From Alphaproteobacteria bacterium (GTDB lineage Bacteria; Pseudomonadota; Alphaproteobacteria; SHVV01): a stretch of DNA of 64,000 bases. Within the stretch, counting starts at the first letter, position 1, and each line of letters opens with the position of its first letter. The translations under genes and the position numbers were made by a program. Below the pieces are notes generated by a model, which was not told the DNA's origin, did not search any database, and worked only from the letters and a program-made list of their open reading frames with translations. Shown in pieces: positions 38,777-44,352 of this stretch. The DNA lies in assembly GCA_965261735.1 (NCBI GenBank), contig OZ253470.1, forward strand, positions 3,648,001 to 3,712,000, given 5' to 3'.

Positions 38777-38938
38777 TCATTGCCGGGCCTTGAACTCGGA
38801 TTCATCGCCGAAATGAAATGAGATTTCGTGTCTTAGGGTGAAACCGTCTTCAATCTCGACCGATCCGATGCCCTGGGCTTCGTCCAGTTCGATGATCTGC
38901 CACTTTGCGGTCAGCGGCGTGCCGGCATCGCCCGTCAT
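38777..38938 (-). pseudogene. Small passenger ORF inside IS5, probably internally deleted
   Basis: ATG overlaps the transposase stop; MTGDAGTPLTAKWQIIE|LDEAQGIGSVEIEDGFTLRHEISFHFGDESEFKARQ. Confidence 0.5.
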
Positions 38939-40056
38939 GTTGGCGCCTCCGCCAGCAGTCTGGGTAGTCGGACGAGGTTGTAGGCGGCCAAGGCCAGGGT
39001 GAACGAAGCGTCGACCCGGTGGCGGCCCCGGAATTTGGTCTTGCTCAATCCCGCGCTCGTCTTGACCCAGCCGAAGACCTCCTCGATGCGCTTGCGGCAA
39101 CGTTGGCTGACGCCGTAACCGGGATGGCGCGTCGTGCGCCCGTCTATCTTGGTCTTGCGCCGCTTGCCGGTCTTGGTGACGTGGTCCTGGACGGCGATAT
39201 GGGGGGTCACCTTGCGGTGCCGCAGTTCCTCGACAAAATCCGCGACGTCAAAACCCTTGTCCCCGCCCACCGTGATCCGACGCCGCCCGCCTCTACTCTC
39301 CACCGGGCGATGCCTGTCGATCAGATCAAGGGCGGCTTCGCGTTCCGCCGTGCCCGACGCAATGGTCACGCCGCCGCCGACTGCCAGACCATGGCGGTTC
39401 TCCGTCAGCGCATGGCCCATGTAACACAGCTTGCTTTCCCGGCCATTACCCTTGCGATAAAGCCGGGCGTCCGGATCAGTGGTGCTTGCATGGGTCGCGT
39501 TCGAGCGTTTCTCGCCATGAAAATCCCGCGCGGCGTTGCGCCCCGATCCCCCGTCGCCATCGTCCTCACCTTTGGGACGAAAGCTCTTCATCGACGCCCA
39601 GGCCTCGATCAATGTTCCGTCTACCGAAAAATGATCCCGGCTCAATAGTCCCCCTACCTTGTGGTGCTGGATAACCCCCGCAAGCAGCTGCCCCGAAACC
39701 TCCGCCTCCAGAAGACGGTCCCGGTTGTGGCAGAACGCGCTGGCGTCCCACACGCCATCGTCCAGCCCAAGCCCCACAAACCAGCAAAACAGCATGTTGA
39801 AGTTTAGCTGCTCCATCAGCTGACGCTCCGAGCAGATCGAATAAAACGCCTGCAACAGTAACGCTCGAAGAAGCTTCTCCGGCGGGATCGATGGGCGACC
39901 CATGTGGGAATAAAGCGTCTCGAACTCCGAAGATAGAGACCCCAATACGTCGTTCACGATCTCACGGATCAGACGCAGCGGATGATCATCCGGAACACGC
40001 TCTTCCAAGTCTACGTAGCTGAATAAATTGCCACTGCTTTGATCTCGACCCCGCAT
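38935..40056 (-). CDS. IS5-family transposase
   Basis: VPDDHPLR, GRPSIPPEKLLRA, HFSVDGTLIEAWAS, STTDPDARLY, GGDKGFD, RKRIEEVFGW. Confidence 0.93.
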   Translation of the reverse strand: MRGRDQSSGNLFSYVDLEERVPDDHPLRLIREIVNDVLGSLSSEFETLYSHMGRPSIPPEKLLRALLLQAFYSICSERQLMEQLNFNMLFCWFVGLGLDDGVWDASAFCHNRDRLLEAEVSGQLLAGVIQHHKVGGLLSRDHFSVDGTLIEAWASMKSFRPKGEDDGDGGSGRNAARDFHGEKRSNATHASTTDPDARLYRKGNGRESKLCYMGHALTENRHGLAVGGGVTIASGTAEREAALDLIDRHRPVESRGGRRRITVGGDKGFDVADFVEELRHRKVTPHIAVQDHVTKTGKRRKTKIDGRTTRHPGYGVSQRCRKRIEEVFGWVKTSAGLSKTKFRGRHRVDASFTLALAAYNLVRLPRLLAEAPT

Positions 40057-40130
40057 GCCATCCTCCATCACTCGAAGGAATCACAGAATCATGTCACAAC
40101 TGCAAAGGCGAGGACTTTTTCAGCAGCCTG

Positions 40131-40955
40131 CTAGAGGAGATTGAAGCGCATGTGCTCGCGGGCAACGACGGCGCCGCTCCACATTCGCGATGCCTCGCTC
40201 TCCAGCTCCTCCATGAACGGGTCCTCATGGTCGGGGTCGTGATGGAAAATCGCCAGCGTCTTGGCGCCGGCGGCTTGGCACAGGCGCACGCCCTCCTGCC
40301 AGGTCGAATGGCCCCAGCCCATGCGGCCGGGAAACTCGTCGTCGGTGTAGGTGCTGTCATAGATCACGAAGTCCGCGCCCTCGATAAGGCCGAGCACGGT
40401 TTCGTCGGGCGCCCCGATCACATGCTCCAGGTCCGTGACGTAGCACATGGCCTTGCCGCGGAACTCGATGCGGTAGCCCGTTGCGCCGCCAGGATGGTTG
40501 AGCGCCGCCGTCTTCACCGTGATCCCTTCGCCGAGTCCGAAGGTGTCACCCGGCTTGAAGTCGGCGAACTCCATCTTCGAGCCCATCTTTTCCAGTGGCA
40601 CCGGAAAGATGGGGCTCGACATCTGGTTGGCGAGGACCTTCTCGACGCCGCCGTGGTCGTGCAGGTGACCGGCCATCAGCACGAAGGAACGATCGGCGCG
40701 GAAGGAGGGCGCAAAAAACGGAAAGCCGTTGATGTGATCCCAGTGCGTGTGGCTCAGCAGCATCGTCGCGTGCTTCAGGTCCTTGCGCAGGAACCAGTGA
40801 CCGAGTTCGCGCAAGCCCGTGCCGGCGTCGAGAATCACGCGCTGTCCGCCGAGCGACACCTCGACGCAGCTCGTGTTCCCGCCGAAGCCGATGTGCTGCG
40901 CCGTGGGACAGGCGATGCTGCCGCGCACGCCCCAGAATTTGATCTTGAAGCTCAT
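40131..40955 (-). CDS. MBL-fold metallo-hydrolase (phosphodiesterase-like)
   Basis: FWGVRGS, GGNTSC, LDAGTG, SHTHWDHI.G, HPGG, TDLEH, WGHS, FHHDP. Confidence 0.92.
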   Translation of the reverse strand: MSFKIKFWGVRGSIACPTAQHIGFGGNTSCVEVSLGGQRVILDAGTGLRELGHWFLRKDLKHATMLLSHTHWDHINGFPFFAPSFRADRSFVLMAGHLHDHGGVEKVLANQMSSPIFPVPLEKMGSKMEFADFKPGDTFGLGEGITVKTAALNHPGGATGYRIEFRGKAMCYVTDLEHVIGAPDETVLGLIEGADFVIYDSTYTDDEFPGRMGWGHSTWQEGVRLCQAAGAKTLAIFHHDPDHEDPFMEELESEASRMWSGAVVAREHMRFNLL

Positions 40956-41130
40956 TTAGGGGCCAGAGGCGTCGTGTAGTGTCGATGCCGTCATCTCGGC
41001 AAGCGACCCTGGAATACCAAATGCCGGCGCTAAAATACAGCGCAACCGATGGGGTGGACGCCCCTCCCGACGGCATCGCGATGTGCCAGGTTGGCGGTGT
41101 TGTTAACGCCAAGCGAGGAAGGGGGCGTCC

Positions 41131-42153
41131 ATGGAACAGGTTCACATGATCGGGATCGATCTGGCGAAGAACAGCTTTCAGCTGCACGGTGCGCGGGCGG
41201 ATGGGTTGGTTGCGTTCCGCAAGAAGCTGAGCCGGGCGAAGCTGTTGGACTTTGTGGCTGCGCAGCCACGCTGCACGGTGGCGATGGAGGCGTGCGGCGG
41301 CGCGCACCATTGGGGCCGGGAGATCGGCAGTCTCGGCCATGCGGTGCGACTGGTCCCACCGATCTACGTCAAAGCGTACGTCAAGCGGCAAAAGAACGAC
41401 GCGTCGGATGCGGAGGCGATCTGCGAGGCGTCGTCGCGGCCGACCATGCGCTTTGTGGCTGTGAAGACGGAGGAACAGCAGGCTCGGGGCATGCTGTTCC
41501 GGACGCGCGATCTTCTGGTGCGCCAGCGCACCCAGACGATTAATGCGCTGCGCGGCCATCTGGCGGAGTTCGGTGTCATTGCCCCGCAGGGGCCGGCTCA
41601 TGTCGGCCGGCTGGCCTCGGCGCTTGAGGGACCGGCTTCGAGGTTGCCGGAAGCGGTCCGCGAGCTGGCCGGCCTTCTGCTTGAGCAGATCGCCGGCCTC
41701 GATGCGAAGATTGCGGGCCTGGAGAGGGAGGTCCACGTGAGAGCACGGCAGGATGAGGAGGCGAGGCGCCTGATGAGCGTGCCGGGGATCGGGCCGATCA
41801 GCGCGATGGCAATCCAGGCCTTCGCACCGCCGATGGAGAGTTTCCGGCGCGGCCGCGACTTCTCCGCTTGGCTCGGCCTCGTGCCGCGCCAGCACACGAC
41901 CGGCGGCAAGCCGAAGCTGGGCAAGATATCGAAGATGGGCCAGCGCGATCTGAGACGGCTGCTGATCACAGGCGCGATGACTGTGGTCCGCTGGGCGGTT
42001 CGGCGCGGCGTGACGACGGACCCCTGGCTGGCCGGGATGCTGGCGCGCAAGCCGAGGATGCTCGTCGCGGTGGCGCTGGCCAACAGGATGGCGCGCATCG
42101 TCTGGGCGCTACTGACGAAGAAGGAGAGCTACCGGGCTCCCGCCACCGCCTGA
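41131..42153 (+). CDS. IS110-family DEDD recombinase
   Basis: GIDLAK, MEACG, KNDASDAEAI, VPGIG, AWLGLVP.QHTTGGK..LG.ISKMG, VALANRMARI.WA. Confidence 0.95.
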   Translation: MEQVHMIGIDLAKNSFQLHGARADGLVAFRKKLSRAKLLDFVAAQPRCTVAMEACGGAHHWGREIGSLGHAVRLVPPIYVKAYVKRQKNDASDAEAICEASSRPTMRFVAVKTEEQQARGMLFRTRDLLVRQRTQTINALRGHLAEFGVIAPQGPAHVGRLASALEGPASRLPEAVRELAGLLLEQIAGLDAKIAGLEREVHVRARQDEEARRLMSVPGIGPISAMAIQAFAPPMESFRRGRDFSAWLGLVPRQHTTGGKPKLGKISKMGQRDLRRLLITGAMTVVRWAVRRGVTTDPWLAGMLARKPRMLVAVALANRMARIVWALLTKKESYRAPATA

Positions 42154-42395
42154 GAGAACGGCGAAGTGCGGGAAGCCGTCGGGGATGTGGGCACGACGGA
42201 GGACAGGTAAGGGCAAAGGTCAACGAGACCGGGTTGGGAAAACCAGCATCCGAACGGAGAGCTTTCAAGCTCGCGTAACCGATTTGGACCCAATCCGCGT
42301 ATCTCCATACGGGCCCGCGGCGTGTCATCTGCCGCATAGAGAGGCCGGACACACGACAGCACCTGACCGCATGCACCGAGCCGACCAAAAACTGC
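42154..42395 (+). ncRNA. Putative bridge RNA / seekRNA of the IS110 element
   Basis: Long non-coding right end with nested stems (gggttggg/cccaatcc, gagc/gctc, ggcc-gcggc/gccgc-ggcc) and segments matching the target flank and donor end. Boundaries approximate. Confidence 0.7.
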
Positions 42396-42423
42396 TTGCA
42401 TCAACGGGGGCGTCCACACACGA

Positions 42424-42790
42424 CAGGCCGGCCAGCGCCTCCTGCCCCTCGGGCAGCATCTTGAGGTAGGAAACGATCGGGGCAACGTAGAGATCAGCGA
42501 GCGAAAGGTCGGCACCCGCGAGATAGGGTGTGCCTCCGAGGGCCCGGTCGATCACCGACATGCAGTGTTTCACGTGTGGAATCGCATTCTTGATCTTCTC
42601 TTCGTCCGGCTCGCGGCCCCGGGACGGAGCTGCCAGGCGCTCGATCACCACGTCGTGGACCGCATATTGATACACGTAGTCGATGACGACACTGGTCCAT
42701 TGCATCATGAGCGCACGGCCTCTGGGCGCCGCTGGTTGCAGCTTCAGACCGTCGAACGCGAGGTCGGCATAGGTGGCGATCGCCAGCGTC
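42424..42790 (-). pseudogene. Glutathione S-transferase fragment
   Basis: TLAIATYADLAFDG.KLQP.....RA.MMQW, YLAGADLSLADL...PI; N-terminus deleted, C-terminus cut at IS110. Confidence 0.8.
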
Positions 42791-43240
42791 TTCGAGACAG
42801 GTCAACGAGCTCGACCATCCGTGCTCGTGGTTGTTGCACGACTCGCGGTCGGTGAAGAACTCGTGGACCAACAACATCTCGGTGCCGCCCCCCCTGTCGC
42901 GCAGCGTCAGCGTGACTTGGGTTTCATGGCCCGGAACGCCGTCCTCTTCCCAGGCCGAGGTGAACACCAGGCGCTCGTTCTCGGTCACCTCCTTGATAAC
43001 GCCGCCGACCCACAGCTGCGTGCCGTCGGGTCCGGTCATGCCGGTGCGGTAGCGGCCGCCGGGGCGCACGTCCAAGGCGTCCACGGTGGTCTCATATCCA
43101 TCCGGGCCCCACCACTTGGCGAGCTCGCCGGGGTCGGTCCAGGCTCTAAATACGGTCGAGGGCGGGGCCCTGAACACTCGCTCGAGCCGCAACGTGTTAG
43201 GGCTTTCCTTCTCCTGCGCGATCGCGCCGGGCGTCGTCAT
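42791..43240 (-). pseudogene. SRPBCC/AHA1-domain protein whose stop codon was lost by deletion
   Basis: LERVF.APP..VFRAWTDP.ELAKWWGP, DVRPGGRY, RLVFT, HEHGWSSSL; the frame then reads through out-of-frame GST sequence to 42494. Confidence 0.8.
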
Positions 43241-43584
43241 TTACCGGCATCCTCCTCGGTTAGATCATCGAGATATTGGGCGAGGCGATCGAGTTGCCCT
43301 TCCCAGAAGCGATGGTAGTCGGCAATCCAAACGGCGGCGTCACGGAGCGGCTCGGCCTCGAGCCGGCAGTGGTGGACCCGCCCATCCCTGCGGCGGCTGA
43401 TGAGGCCCGCCGCCTCCAGCGCCTTGAGGTGGCGCGACACGGCGGGCAGTGAGATTTCGAATGGGTCGGCGAGCTCGCCCACCGAGGCCTCGCCGAGCGC
43501 CAGTCGCGCCAGGATGGCGCGGCGCGTGGGATCGGAAAGCGCGGAAAAAGTGCGGTCGAGCCGCCGTGGCGAATAGTTAACCAC
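43237..43584 (-). CDS. ArsR/SmtB-family transcriptional regulator
   Basis: FSALSDPTRRAIL.RL, SLPAVSRHLK.LE.AGLI, RFWE..LDRL. Confidence 0.92.
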   Translation of the reverse strand: MVNYSPRRLDRTFSALSDPTRRAILARLALGEASVGELADPFEISLPAVSRHLKALEAAGLISRRRDGRVHHCRLEAEPLRDAAVWIADYHRFWEGQLDRLAQYLDDLTEEDAGK

Positions 43585-43619
43585 CTCATTAAATATAGAG
43601 GGCCACCAACGCCTGTCAA
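43573..43619 (-). promoter_or_regulatory. Sigma70-like promoter and palindromic operator overlapping the arsR start
   Basis: Minus strand TTGACA-N16-TATATT; imperfect palindrome ATATTTAA-N8-TTAACTAT spans the GTG start. Confidence 0.65.
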
Positions 43620-43662
43620 CCCGGCAGCAATGACTGGTGTGGATTGGGTCCGGCGTCGGCCT

Positions 43663-44352
43663 CTACCAGCCGAATCCCGGGCCGGTACCGAACAGCAGCC
43701 GATGGGCCAAGAGTAGGGCGGCATAGATCGCGAGCCCCAGGGCCACGGGGCGCCAGCCGATCTCGCTCCAGCTCAGCCGCGTCCGCCTGGCGATAACGGC
43801 GCCAAAGGGCAGGTAGGAGGTGACGGCGGCATAGTCCCGCCAGGTGTCGCGGTCGGCGTGCCGGCGCTTGGCATCGATCTGCAGGGGCCCGAACAGCGAG
43901 AGCACGAGCAGCCCGCCGAAAAAGATGAGGGCCGCGACATCGCCCCGTGCCACTAGGTGCGCCGCCGCCCACAGGGCCACCGCCCACATCATGGGGTGGC
44001 GCGTGATCCGGGCGATGCCGCGGGGCGGCTCGGCCAGCCTTTTCTCGCCTCCGATGCCCGTCGGACTGGGCGTCGTTCGGGCGGCCACGAGAGCAATGAG
44101 GGCGAACGGCATCACCGCATGGGGCACATGCGTGAACCAGCCGGCGGACCAAACGGGATCGTAGGGCGCGACCCGGTAGGCGGCCGCCATCCATACCAGA
44201 CCGGCGAGCGAAAAGAGCGCAAACAACCCGCGAAATGCGGCTTCGCCGACGATACCGACGAAGACGCCGCGAAGGGGCGAGCCGGAGACCAGGAAATGAA
44301 TGAGGACGAAAAAGGCCGTCGCGTAAGCGAGGTCCAGGTGGGTGCCGAACAT
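43663..44352 (-). CDS. nnrU: NnrU-family membrane protein
   Basis: F...H......LR, GIARITRHPMMW.VALWAAAHL...GD, IDAKR, TSYLPF.A. Confidence 0.85.
   Translation of the reverse strand: MFGTHLDLAYATAFFVLIHFLVSGSPLRGVFVGIVGEAAFRGLFALFSLAGLVWMAAAYRVAPYDPVWSAGWFTHVPHAVMPFALIALVAARTTPSPTGIGGEKRLAEPPRGIARITRHPMMWAVALWAAAHLVARGDVAALIFFGGLLVLSLFGPLQIDAKRRHADRDTWRDYAAVTSYLPFGAVIARRTRLSWSEIGWRPVALGLAIYAALLLAHRLLFGTGPGFGW

Follow-up and report, generated by a model that had tools for sequence, protein, structure and literature searches.

A predicted two-loop bridge RNA in an IS1111-group insertion sequence of an alphaproteobacterium

Within the window, i.e. the whole stretch of 64,000 nucleotides analysed here, positions 41049-42422 very probably constitute an active-looking element of the IS1111 group, which encodes a DEDD recombinase and a predicted structured RNA of ~220 nt with a target and a donor loop. 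RNA-guided IS110/IS1111 recombinases have been described since 2024, and for this reason the finding itself is unsurprising. The element would be a further member of the described class and might already be included in the lists of Durrant et al. or Siddiquee et al. The analysis provides a predicted annotation of an IS1111-type bridge RNA, comprising its ends, the core, both target guides, the donor guide and the closing helix (Table 1). Furthermore, the scaffold of the family is almost invariant, yet at least 41-42 natural target loops were observed in genomes labelled as several phyla. This target-loop diversity represents a ready natural reprogramming series for the IS1111 type, which is less studied than IS621.

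Table 1. Features of the element and of its insertion site, in coordinates of the window.
Feature	Position	Strand	Remarks
Left target and core of the window copy	41040..41048	+	GCGCAAC-CG; 4 of 5 guide positions and core match
IS1111-group (IS110 family) insertion sequence	41049..42422	+	99-100% identical across its 14 genomic copies
Left subterminal inverted repeat GTGGACGCCCC	41054..41064	+	11 nt, 100% complementary to 42407-42417
Left-end hairpin	41055..41131	+	41055-64 with 41122-31, 10 nt, 100% complementary
Transposase/recombinase gene, 340 aa	41131..42153	+	Pfam, NCBIfam and PDB sequence matches
Predicted bridge/long seekRNA body, ends inferred	42184..42402	+	closed by helix P1 (42184-92 with 42394-402)
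Target-binding loop module	42231..42296	+	outer stem 42231-38/42289-96, CC/GG 42243-44/42286-87, inner hairpin 42259-62/42269-72
Right-target guide	42250..42256	+	CCGAA and CG core complement, 5' of the hairpin; pairs with top-strand CG-TTCGG
Left-target guide	42275..42283	+	GTAAC and core CG (42275-81), then AT (42282-83), handshake-like
Donor-binding loop module	42297..42363	+	stem GGCC 42312-15/42343-46, hairpin GCGGC 42317-21/GCCGC 42331-35
Candidate left-end guide CUCCAU	42303..42308	+	against ATGGGG (41049-41054), one G-U; read directly
Donor guide ACACACG	42349..42355	+	equals the final 7 nt of the element, core included (42416-22)
Right subterminal inverted repeat GGGGCGTCCAC	42407..42417	+	columns invariant in alignment A1
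GST-like gene remnant interrupted by the element	42423..42792	-	frame resumes at 41046 leftwards

Ends, copies and recombinase gene of the element

The limits of the element were set by comparing the ends of the copies in the genome, which carries 14 near-identical ones, 13 of them with 1,374 bp (one CG core counted, 42421-22) and one with 1,373 bp. All 14 start with ATGGGGTGGACG after ...CG and finish with ...GTCCACACACG. They show a CG dinucleotide at each junction (41047-48 and 42421-22 in the window copy), a conserved flank motif and a single orientation, and a target-site duplication was not found in them beyond the shared CG core. The original prediction had placed the element at 41040-42426; the element is real, but the copy ends confine it to 41049-42422, with 41040-41048 being flank. 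Identical target-loop modules were counted 16 times in the genome, compared to the 14 full copies. In the plasmid collection, the top full-length match (70.1% identity) was located on a Microvirga lotononidis plasmid; a close named relative was not found in this collection, and the listed annotations read just 'IS110 family transposase'.

The perfect subterminal repeats of 11 bp are set 5 nt and 5 nt (core included) inside the element ends, and the left one is kept in the homologues. Members of the IS1111 group are reported to carry subterminal inverted repeats that measure 7-17 bp and leave short extensions at the termini (PMC11208160). The non-coding DNA comprises 82 bp upstream of the gene (41049-41130) compared to 269 bp downstream of it (42154-42422), the latter being in agreement with the predicted non-coding right end of ~270 bp.

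The transposase consists of an N-terminal DEDD (RuvC-like) domain and a C-terminal PF02371 domain, which were matched in Pfam with E-values of 5.9e-15 (DEDD_Tnp_IS110, PF01548) and 4e-22 (Transposase_20, PF02371). The NCBIfam model NF033542 ('IS110 family RNA-guided transposase') gave 319.5 bits at a cut-off of 140, and sequence matches in the PDB were obtained for ISCro4 (9t56, E 7.6e-13) and IS621 (8wt6, E 7.1e-10). As reported by Siddiquee et al. (PMC11187229), IS1111 transposases comprise 330-350 aa and carry a GL-P----S(t)G motif; the translation comprises 340 aa and contains GLVPRQHTTG, which aligns with GLTPRRYESG of IS621. In the transposase cluster of 163 members, a named entry was absent among the 40 inspected. 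Altogether, it is supported that the element belongs to the IS1111 group of the IS110 family and contains a 3' non-coding region with target and donor loops.

At the left end, the hairpin spans the ribosome-binding region and the ATG at 41131, and the MFE fold of 41049-41145 includes its helix (z -1.94). The left end (41054-41074) is also complementary to both flanks of the bridge RNA, i.e. to 42175-84 and 42407-17. For the pairing of 41066-74 with 42175-83, 377 of 441 cells were paired, while shuffles averaged 367.3 and reached 374 at most; since both segments are conserved, this support is real but thin. Such complementarity could couple the structure of the mRNA to the release or control of the RNA.

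By analogy to the family, the element would be excised as a circle, a promoter made at the joined ends would drive recombinase and RNA, and the complex of both would exchange strands at the CG core. The first internal loop of the RNA, the target loop, would read the target, while the second, the donor loop, would read the element's own ends as joined in the circle. The circle junction would read ...CACACACG-ATGGGG..., and inspection by eye suggests that joining the ends would create TTGCAT (42396-42401), 17 nt and then CACG+AT; in the linear element, a sigma-70-like promoter was not found. RNA-library contigs from two studies cover 42081-42422, although RNA libraries can contain DNA. In these contigs, the element ends at 42422 and TTCGG follows, in line with the right-target guide. 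In the 4 runs compared with the window, joints for the circle junction or the empty site were not found among such contigs, and the flanks 40900-41013 and 42439-42600 had zero cover in all 4. The higher X1/X2 figures over 42211-42381 were not taken as evidence of expression, because the depth per contig cannot rank parts of the element.

Structure of the predicted RNA and its guide segments

The consensus fold, calculated with RNAalifold from 49 distinct homologues, comprises 36 pairs with 96.9% of cells paired, 13 of these pairs showing changes on both sides. In helix P1, changes on both sides were observed for 4 of 8 pairs, with 92.3% of cells paired. None of 500 shuffles reached a consensus pairing as high and slid partners gave 27-41% of cells paired, whereby the shuffle controls overstate independence, because the homologous loci are related to each other. 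The helices on the + strand hold many G-U pairs (for example 14, 21 and 27 cells), and since the opposite strand would have A-C mismatches in their place, the fold was assigned to the + strand. The single-sequence fold of the non-coding region was unremarkable (z -1.54), and a scan of 40000-44000 against Rfam 15 with E up to 1 gave no family match.

From the homologous loci, 80 were fetched and 71 parsed, with 15 records skipped, resulting in 42 target-loop classes and 63 distinct sites. Across these 71 loci, which all lie in other genomes, the flanks and termini covary with both target guides and with the donor guide. In 14 of the 71, the core is altered from CG to TG jointly in all three guide segments.

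In the target loop, the predicted outer stem gggttggg/cccaatcc and the inner hairpin gagc/gctc were both recovered in the consensus. The outer stem showed compensatory changes in 5 of 8 pairs at 99% of cells paired, and the middle pair of the hairpin occurs as AU (17), GC (17), UA (6) and CG (1). The left guide had been noticed from gcgtaaccgat at 42273-42283, which is indeed identical to gcgcaaccgat at 41040-41050 in 10 of 11 positions. The proposed covariation of this loop with the left target is present in the 71 loci: for positions LT1-5, guide and flank match in 79-97% of 75 cognate sites compared to 25-31% of non-cognate pairs. Consequently, GTAAC-CG can be retained from the left target GCGTAAC-CGA suggested before, whereas LT6-7 gave no signal in the 75 cognate sites and the final A is the first base of the element. 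Among the left flanks of the 14 copies, 11 end with AACCG, including 5 with GTAACCG. The AT after the left guide (42282-83) equals the first two element bases and is handshake-like. The idea that right flanks starting with AT are a read-through of this extension was rejected, as the two bases after the core are identical to the extension in 1 of 20 sites with a poor match and in 1 of 46 sites with a good one.

Contrary to the original prediction, which had found no guide for the right flank, CCGAACG (42250-56) fits the right flank of 9 of the 14 copies, the window copy with its unmatched flank being excluded from these. The right flanks showed TTCG in 6 copies, GTTC/GTTG with an offset of 1 nt in 3, and unrelated sequences in 5. 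In the homologues, the longest common run between right guide and flank averages 6.56 for cognate and 3.24 for non-cognate pairs. Scored by position, the right-flank match amounts to just 47-77%, and the 5'-stem anchor did worse than the hairpin anchor; since the register differs between classes, the register-free longest common run is the figure to trust. Runs of at least 7 between a guide and its own flank were determined for 43 (left) and 31 (right) of 63 distinct sites, compared to 74 (left) and 17 (right) among 3,828 non-cognate pairs. The top-strand match lies 5' of the bottom-strand match, as reported for IS1111 seekRNAs (PMC11187229). Taken together, the left and right guides of the target loop point to a preferred site of about GTAAC-CG-TTCGG.

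The helices of the donor loop are flanked by CTCCAT (42303-08) and GGACACACGACAG and give little covariation evidence, because they are nearly invariant. An outer stem for this loop was not found between columns 196-207 and 262-299 of A1. An alternative long-range helix GGUCA/UGACC (42218-22/42364-68) is 95.5% paired and almost invariant, with a local GUC/GAC hairpin as its rival. The donor 7-mer is identical to the right terminus of its own locus in 67 of 70 homologous loci with 8 terminus variants. The 11-mer acacacgacag is located at 42349-42359 and 42416-42426 as predicted, but only 42416-42422 correspond to terminus and core; acag at 42423-42426 is flank of the window copy, and the other 13 copies differ there. 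The segments ctccat and atgggg were likewise found at their predicted positions. Only CCAU/ATGG is constant among the homologues and positions 5-6 show no covariation, and CUCCAU may pair with the left terminus. Altogether, the proposal of two guide loops, with a left target guide and a right-end donor guide, is upheld by the 14 copies and the covariation in the 71 loci.

Other readings of the guide segments differ in their weight. Chance matches between non-coding region and flanks in GC-rich DNA could be suspected from the 64-kb window, in which GCGTAACCGAT at up to 1 mismatch occurs 4 times compared to 1.17 expected; as 7 of 100 shuffles reach this count, the single 11-mer coincidence is not decisive. 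In addition, CCGAACGG was found 3 times, compared to 6.4 expected. Unlike this lone coincidence, the comparative data are, at the level of sequence, decisive for the guides, since cognate and non-cognate pairs contrast across 63-75 sites, and core and terminus switch together. As far as the comparative statistics hold, the chance reading is refuted, and its probability is practically nil. It is slightly less remote, though still highly improbable, that the guide-like segments work not as RNA but as single-stranded DNA (compare the DNA guides of the IS200/IS605 type) or as protein-binding sites. While the linear element without a promoter-like site would fit this reading, the guide of the family is experimentally an RNA, which is recovered together with the purified transposase and is sensitive to RNase (PMC11187229). 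Furthermore, the + strand helices accept many G-U pairs, the region is covered by RNA-library contigs, and NCBIfam calls the protein family 'RNA-guided'.

More weight, although it is likewise unlikely, can be given to the reading that only the target loop works, as a short seekRNA, and that the ACACACG module is a processing or regulatory part or a copy of the end at the DNA level. For ISEc11, a short seekRNA of 82 nt alone gave 42% transposition, with the role of the long form left open in the cited account (PMC11187229), and the donor-loop half is therefore possibly unneeded for insertion. In line with this, the donor-loop stems are invariant here, the left-end guide CUCCAU lacks covariation, and the subterminal repeats could allow a protein-based recognition of the ends. 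In two other genomes, tandem duplications of the DNA (131 nt x 4.1 in L092 and 70 nt x 2.1 in L098) extend from the ACACACG module up to the right end, which shows that the internal copy of the terminus is used for recombination of the DNA itself. Nonetheless, the donor 7-mer follows its own right terminus through all 8 variants, including the change of the core from CG to TG, and this agreement is hard to keep without selection for matching. Donor-complementary loops in IS1111 members are also described by Durrant et al. (PMC11208160). An RNA in which both loops function is thus the preferred reading.

Insertion site of the window copy

The window copy is located at GCGCAAC-CG-ACAGGCC, where the left guide and the core find a match and the right guide finds none. 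It therefore looks like a natural half-match insertion via the left arm only. The interrupted gene is GST-like (Pfam GST_C, E 3.1e-7) and contains the element in its 3' portion, and since 1,374 equals 3 x 458, both flanks share one frame. With the GST of the same-family genome G001 as tblastn query, the alignment covered aa 65-192 in the window as it is and aa 65-201 after an in-silico excision with one CG kept, while E improved from 3.0e-37 to 8.7e-40. As the excision rejoins the GST-like frame, a left-half-match insertion is likely; this evidence is good but not conclusive, because the extension is short (9 residues and a 5-residue gap). Under a simple insertion, the uninterrupted GST-like allele would be expected to contain GCGCAACCGACAGGCC.

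Alternatively, the window copy could have entered a full GTAAC-CG-TTCGG site, with its right flank exchanged afterwards through a deletion or rearrangement. A rearranged right flank had been suspected originally; it would explain that ACAGGCC is unmatched by the right guide, and the neighbourhood is decayed, with the GST-like gene missing its first ~64 residues, whereas G001 carries a full 217-aa GST and an extra 163-aa ORF between an MBL-fold gene and an ArsR-like gene. However, the precise excision gives a continuous GST-like frame, with the G001 alignment crossing the junction and reaching aa 201 instead of aa 192, which does not support a rearrangement. Homologous recombination between copies would just bring another flank that once matched the guide, and a right-flank match is missing in four further copies as well. 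The later replacement of the flank is thus considered distinctly unlikely, and the half-match insertion is preferred.

Perfect target sites may be nearly exhausted in the genome: GTAACCGTTCGG was found with 0 exact sites and 3 sites with one mismatch, compared to 15.5 expected. About a third of the copies, among them the window copy, would be half-match insertions. Uninterrupted sites of the 82%-related family were also sought in the genome, and none was found when up to 3 mismatches in 28 were allowed. For insertion in vivo, the left guide (5 nt and the core) may be sufficient in this IS1111-type lineage, and natural half-match insertions bear on the off-target behaviour of bridge recombinases.

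A handshake role is conceivable for the donor-guide bases after the core (ACAG, 42356-59), which may have helped to choose the right flank ACAG (42423-26) of the window copy. Donor guide and flank share the first base after the core in 22 of 74 cognate sites, compared to a fraction of 0.197 for non-cognate pairs. Three-base matches were determined for 8 of 74 sites compared to 0.013, with 6 of the 8 originating from one guide family, and four-base matches for two, one of them (L098) being the 70-nt tandem duplication. Since one guide family dominates and L098 is a duplication, the 4-nt match of the window copy possibly results from chance, and with about 1/256 per site and 5 mismatched sites in the genome it may indeed do so. 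The joint reading, in which the left guide alone licenses insertion in vivo, the ACAG handshake operates and the left end is coupled to the RNA, is conceivable but rather doubtful.

Comparison with known systems

The predicted RNA of ~220 nt is the counterpart of what Durrant et al. call the bridge RNA and Siddiquee et al. the long seekRNA. ISEc11, ISPa11, ISKpn4 and ISPst6 were compared by their published description (PMC11187229). As far as that description goes, they share with it a transposase of ~340 aa with the GL-P----(S/T)G motif, subterminal inverted repeats, a long non-coding region downstream of the gene and the absence of an internal promoter. The same holds true for the order of the matches in the RNA, predicted in the present case, with the top-strand match 5' of the bottom-strand match and an overlap at the insertion point, and for guides and targets that vary between relatives as a natural reprogramming. 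The predicted P1-closed RNA of ~220 nt differs from the long forms of 145-172 nt in the ISEc11 group (PMC11187229). Moreover, the donor-end guide is backed by covariation here, a point left open in the cited account.

IS621 (Durrant et al. 2024, PMC11208160; Hiraizumi et al. 2024, PMC11208158; PDB 8wt6) likewise possesses a target and a donor loop, each of which is described to pair with both strands, with an overlap at a core of 2 nt that the guides read as well. The bases following the core are similar to its handshake guides, and the C-terminal domains of the recombinases can be aligned (E 7.1e-10). According to the same descriptions, the RNA lies in the left end of IS621 but in the right end here, the strand order within the loops is reversed, with the 5' side reading the top strand here, and the core is CT compared to CG here and TG in relatives. 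Long subterminal repeats distinguish the present element from IS621, and a Thr is aligned with the Ser of the SG motif of IS621, which is the catalytic S241 in the numbering of the IS621 paper.

For the IS110-family element ISPpu9 with Ssr9 (NAR 2025, PMC12288879), a small RNA encoded behind the transposase gene is reported, together with additional solo copies of the RNA in the genome. This resembles the arrangement described here, where 16 identical target-loop modules were counted for 14 full copies. For half matches of IS621, Xie et al. (bioRxiv 10.64898/2026.08.31.748434) report that the core and one arm are enough for insertion. This resembles the window copy, which fits the left arm and the core, and the 5 of 14 copies without a right-arm match. 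While the data cited from Xie et al. are in vitro results and a re-analysis of E. coli data for the IS110 group, the copies observed here are natural ones of the IS1111 group.

Ends, copies and features of the element

The whole-genome DNA search yielded 14 copies of the element with 99-100% identity, in addition to five copies of relatives with 80-82% identity and fragments. Copy boundaries were set by anchoring on the element ends: all 14 copies start with ATGGGGTGGACG immediately 3' of ...CG and end with ...GTCCACACACG, at a length of 1,374 bp in 13 of them and 1,373 bp in one. These common starts and ends define the element as listed in the table. From its presence at both junctions, we read the CG dinucleotide as the core common to donor and target. 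Of the 14 left flanks, 11 end in AACCG and five in GTAACCG. Since one left flank, CATGGAGCCG, is common to three copies over at least 50 bp, these three do not represent independent events. The right flanks begin with TTCG in six copies and with GTTC or GTTG in three, which is this motif shifted by one base; those of five copies are unrelated (ATAA, GGCG, ATGT, ATGG and the ACAG of the window copy).

Features of the element and of the predicted RNA (window coordinates)
Feature	Position	Strand	Remark
Element	41049-42422	+	1,374 bp
CG at the junctions	41047-48; 42421-22		putative core
Subterminal inverted repeat	41054-64 / 42407-17		perfect, 11 bp
Transposase ORF	41131-42153	+	340 aa
Closing helix P1	42184-92 / 42394-402		4 of 8 pairs compensatory
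Target-loop stem	42231-38 / 42289-96		5 of 8 pairs compensatory
CC/GG	42243-44 / 42286-87		invariant
Right guide, CCGAACG(G)	42250-57		5' side of internal loop
Target-loop hairpin	42259-62 / 42269-72		one pair AU 17, GC 17, UA 6, CG 1
Left guide, gcgtaaccgat	42273-83		3' side of the same loop
Donor-loop stem GGCC	42312-15 / 42343-46		nearly invariant
Donor-loop hairpin	42317-21 / 42331-35		nearly invariant
Donor guide, ACACACG	42349-55		second module

Three copies just upstream of the window (L008, L012 and L014; G000:C1 3602209-3635949, G000 being the genome containing the window) comprise an identical left flank over at least 50 bp, GGAGC-CG, with no match to the left guide. Two of them have the right flank TTCGATCGG in common and the third shows ATGGCC, which suggests that this IS-rich stretch underwent segmental duplication and a rearrangement. 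Three 5'-truncated copies kept the right end (G000:C1 4279546, 3363439 and 239041); two of these contain an intact target-loop module, which brings the identical modules to 16, compared to 14 full copies, among 24 modules in six guide classes genome-wide. Four copies of an 82%-related element (L015-L018; G000:C1 440657, 4174428, 4347524 and 3422067) have at least 40-60 bp of flank in common on both sides, and no uninterrupted version of this site was found in the genome. Either they sit in an always-occupied repeated unit or they were copied along with it.

Guide segments and their covariation with the flanks

All strings quoted in the original prediction were present at their quoted positions. 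The left guide is oriented like the left flank plus core and, as RNA, would pair with the bottom strand. For the right flank no guide had been recognized, but the same internal loop does contain a right-target guide: CCGAACG(G) is reverse-complementary to (C)CGTTCGG, the core plus consensus right flank.

Two related families inside the genome already change guides and flanks jointly. In one of them, the guides GCAAAAATG and CGTGGTACA occur with the flanks GCAAAAA-TG and TG-TACCACG, and the donor guide ACAGATG equals the terminus ACAGATG. A homologue scan with one genome per species gave 80 loci with a product identity of 66-99%, the record titles naming Alphaproteobacteria, Binatia, Longimicrobiales, Gemmatimonadetes, Acidobacteria, Nitrospinota, Chloroflexota and others. 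Together with the window and five related-family copies in its genome, 86 records were available, of which 71 were parsed by anchors and 15 skipped. The parsed records showed variable loop sides on a near-constant scaffold, with 42 loop classes and 63 distinct sites. As a register-free score, the longest common run of guide and flank was determined. On the left, the mean was 6.86 for cognate compared to 3.66 for non-cognate pairs, with runs of at least 7 in 43/63 and 74/3,828, respectively, which bears out the covariation of left guide and left target proposed as a check in the original prediction. On the right, the means were 6.56 and 3.24, with such runs in 31/63 and 17/3,828.

Matching per position was determined for 75 sites, copies in the genome included. 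Left positions 1-5 were matched in 79-97% compared to 25-31% in non-cognate pairs, while positions 6-7 showed no signal. The working left guide therefore comprises 5 nt plus core and is shorter than the GCGTAAC proposed before. Right positions 1-6 were matched in 47-77% compared to 23-38%, an underestimate since the register varies between classes. The core is TG in 14 of 71 loci, and left, right and donor guides all switch with it.

The donor guide equals the 7 nt at the right end of the element, core included. Of the 11-mer terminus match reported previously, these 7 nt hold, whereas the last four (acag) belong to the flank of this copy. In 67 of 70 loci, covering eight terminus variants, the donor 7-mer was identical to the right terminus of that same locus. 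For the proposed left-end guide CUCCAU, the constant part is CCAU/ATGG alone and the next two positions do not track the left end, as can be seen for the CACCAT class, which occurs with ATGGGG as well as ATGGAG left ends.

The ACAG following the core in the donor guide (42356-42359) equals the right flank of the window copy (42423-42426), and in one related guide family ACC at the same positions matches the usual right flank ACCCC; these matches may reflect handshake-like pairing or chance. In two loci of other genomes, DNA from the donor loop to the right end is repeated in tandem at 100% identity (L092 1869-2402, 131 nt x 4.1; L098 1924-2070, 70 nt x 2.1), which is suggestive of recombination between the right end and the internal copy of its sequence.

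Insertion site of the window copy

The right flank is part of a minus-strand GST-like remnant (Pfam GST_C, E 3.1e-7). In the same-family genome G001, homologues of the window's two neighbouring genes enclose a 217-aa GST. With this GST as tblastn query, residues 65-192 were matched in the intact window (E 3.0e-37) and residues 65-201 after in-silico excision with one CG kept (E 8.7e-40). Since the length of the element is divisible by three, both flanks are in frame. The extension of the match across the excised junction, from residue 192 to 201, argues against the rearranged right flank considered in the original prediction. The simplest reading is a clean insertion at GCGCAAC-CG-ACAGGCC, where four of five left-guide positions and the core match and the right guide is unmatched. 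Similar 'half-match' insertions have recently been reported for IS621 (bioRxiv 10.64898/2026.08.31.748434). Free full target sites are scarce in the genome, as far as small numbers allow: GTAACCGTTCGG, with at most one mismatch on both strands, occurred three times compared to 74 times for the reversed-pattern control and an order-3 Markov expectation of 15.5. Observed over expected was thus 0.19, lower than the 5% quantile of 0.30 determined from 200 composition-matched patterns.

The GST-like gene in 42423-43584 lacks about 64 N-terminal residues, and a 163-aa ORF located between the GST and an SRPBCC-like gene in G001 is missing from this region; this loss of DNA is independent of the insertion. 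About 1 kb left of the element, a 378-aa ORF (38935-40071, minus strand) resembles a DDE-type transposase. A perfect 12-nt inverted repeat, GCTGGCCGGCCT / AGGCCGGCCAGC, connects the transposase gene (41664-41675) and the right flank (42425-42436), probably by chance in GC-rich DNA.

Predicted RNA, transcription and family assignment

The RNAalifold consensus of 49 aligned distinct non-coding regions, scored with one added candidate helix, comprises 36 pairs, 13 of them changed on both sides, and 96.9% of the cells are paired. None of 500 shuffles was as high on all five measures, a control inflated by the relatedness of the sequences, and sliding the partners by 1-3 columns left 27-41% of cells paired. 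Since G-U pairs are frequent on the plus strand, the fold was assigned to this strand; P1 suggests a predicted RNA of about 220 nt.

The left repeat (41055-41064) is perfectly complementary to 41122-41131, comprising the ribosome-binding region and the transposase ATG (41131). This leader helix of 10-12 bp is kept in related families with matching changes (CCCC/GGGG to CCTCC/GGAGG) and could mask translation in read-through transcripts. Furthermore, 41065-41074 is complementary to 42175-42184, just 5' of P1, and 41054-64 to 42407-17, the right repeat just 3' of P1, so that in a full-length transcript both flanks of the predicted RNA could be bound by a single leader segment. The pairing with 42175-42184 reached 377 of 441 cells compared to a shuffle maximum of 374, with a small number of compensatory changes (A-T to G-C in six, G-C to A-T in three) and many G-U pairs.

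Contigs of four sequencing runs were mapped, which carry no ends, strand or level. RNA-library contigs from two studies cover the element including 42081-42422, although such libraries may hold DNA. Beyond the element end at 42422, contigs of runs X2 and X5 continue with TTCGG..., the flank expected from the right guide, and an X1 contig enters it via ...GT before AACCG. No joints were reported in the contigs of the four runs, and hence neither a circle junction nor an empty site was seen. The linear element showed no sigma-70-like promoter, which is consistent with IS1111 members, whose sole promoter is the one made when the ends join, according to PMC11187229. By eye, TTGCAT (42396-42401), 17 nt and CACG+AT would form a candidate promoter at the joined ends.

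The transposase matched Pfam DEDD_Tnp_IS110 (E 5.9e-15) and Transposase_20 (E 4e-22), as well as NCBIfam NF033542 'IS110 family RNA-guided transposase' with 319.5 bits (cut-off 140). Among solved recombinases, sequence search matched ISCro4 (9t56, E 7.6e-13) and IS621 (8wt6, E 7.1e-10); in the alignment to 8wt6, GLTPRRYESG of IS621 lies opposite GLVPRQHTTG. The closest match in the plasmid collection was 70.1% identical, and none of the transposase-cluster members listed bears a name. Every defining feature tested for the IS1111 group was found, as were those tested for a bridge/seekRNA, apart from the left-end donor guide, RNA production and binding, and the circle and its promoter, of which the circle and its promoter were looked for in the contigs and the linear element and not seen. 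The element is a further member of the already known IS1111/bridge-RNA class. In its guide order, the top-strand match comes first, as described for IS1111-family seekRNAs, where it lies 5' of the bottom-strand match, and the reverse of IS110-type RNAs (PMC11187229; PMC11208160).
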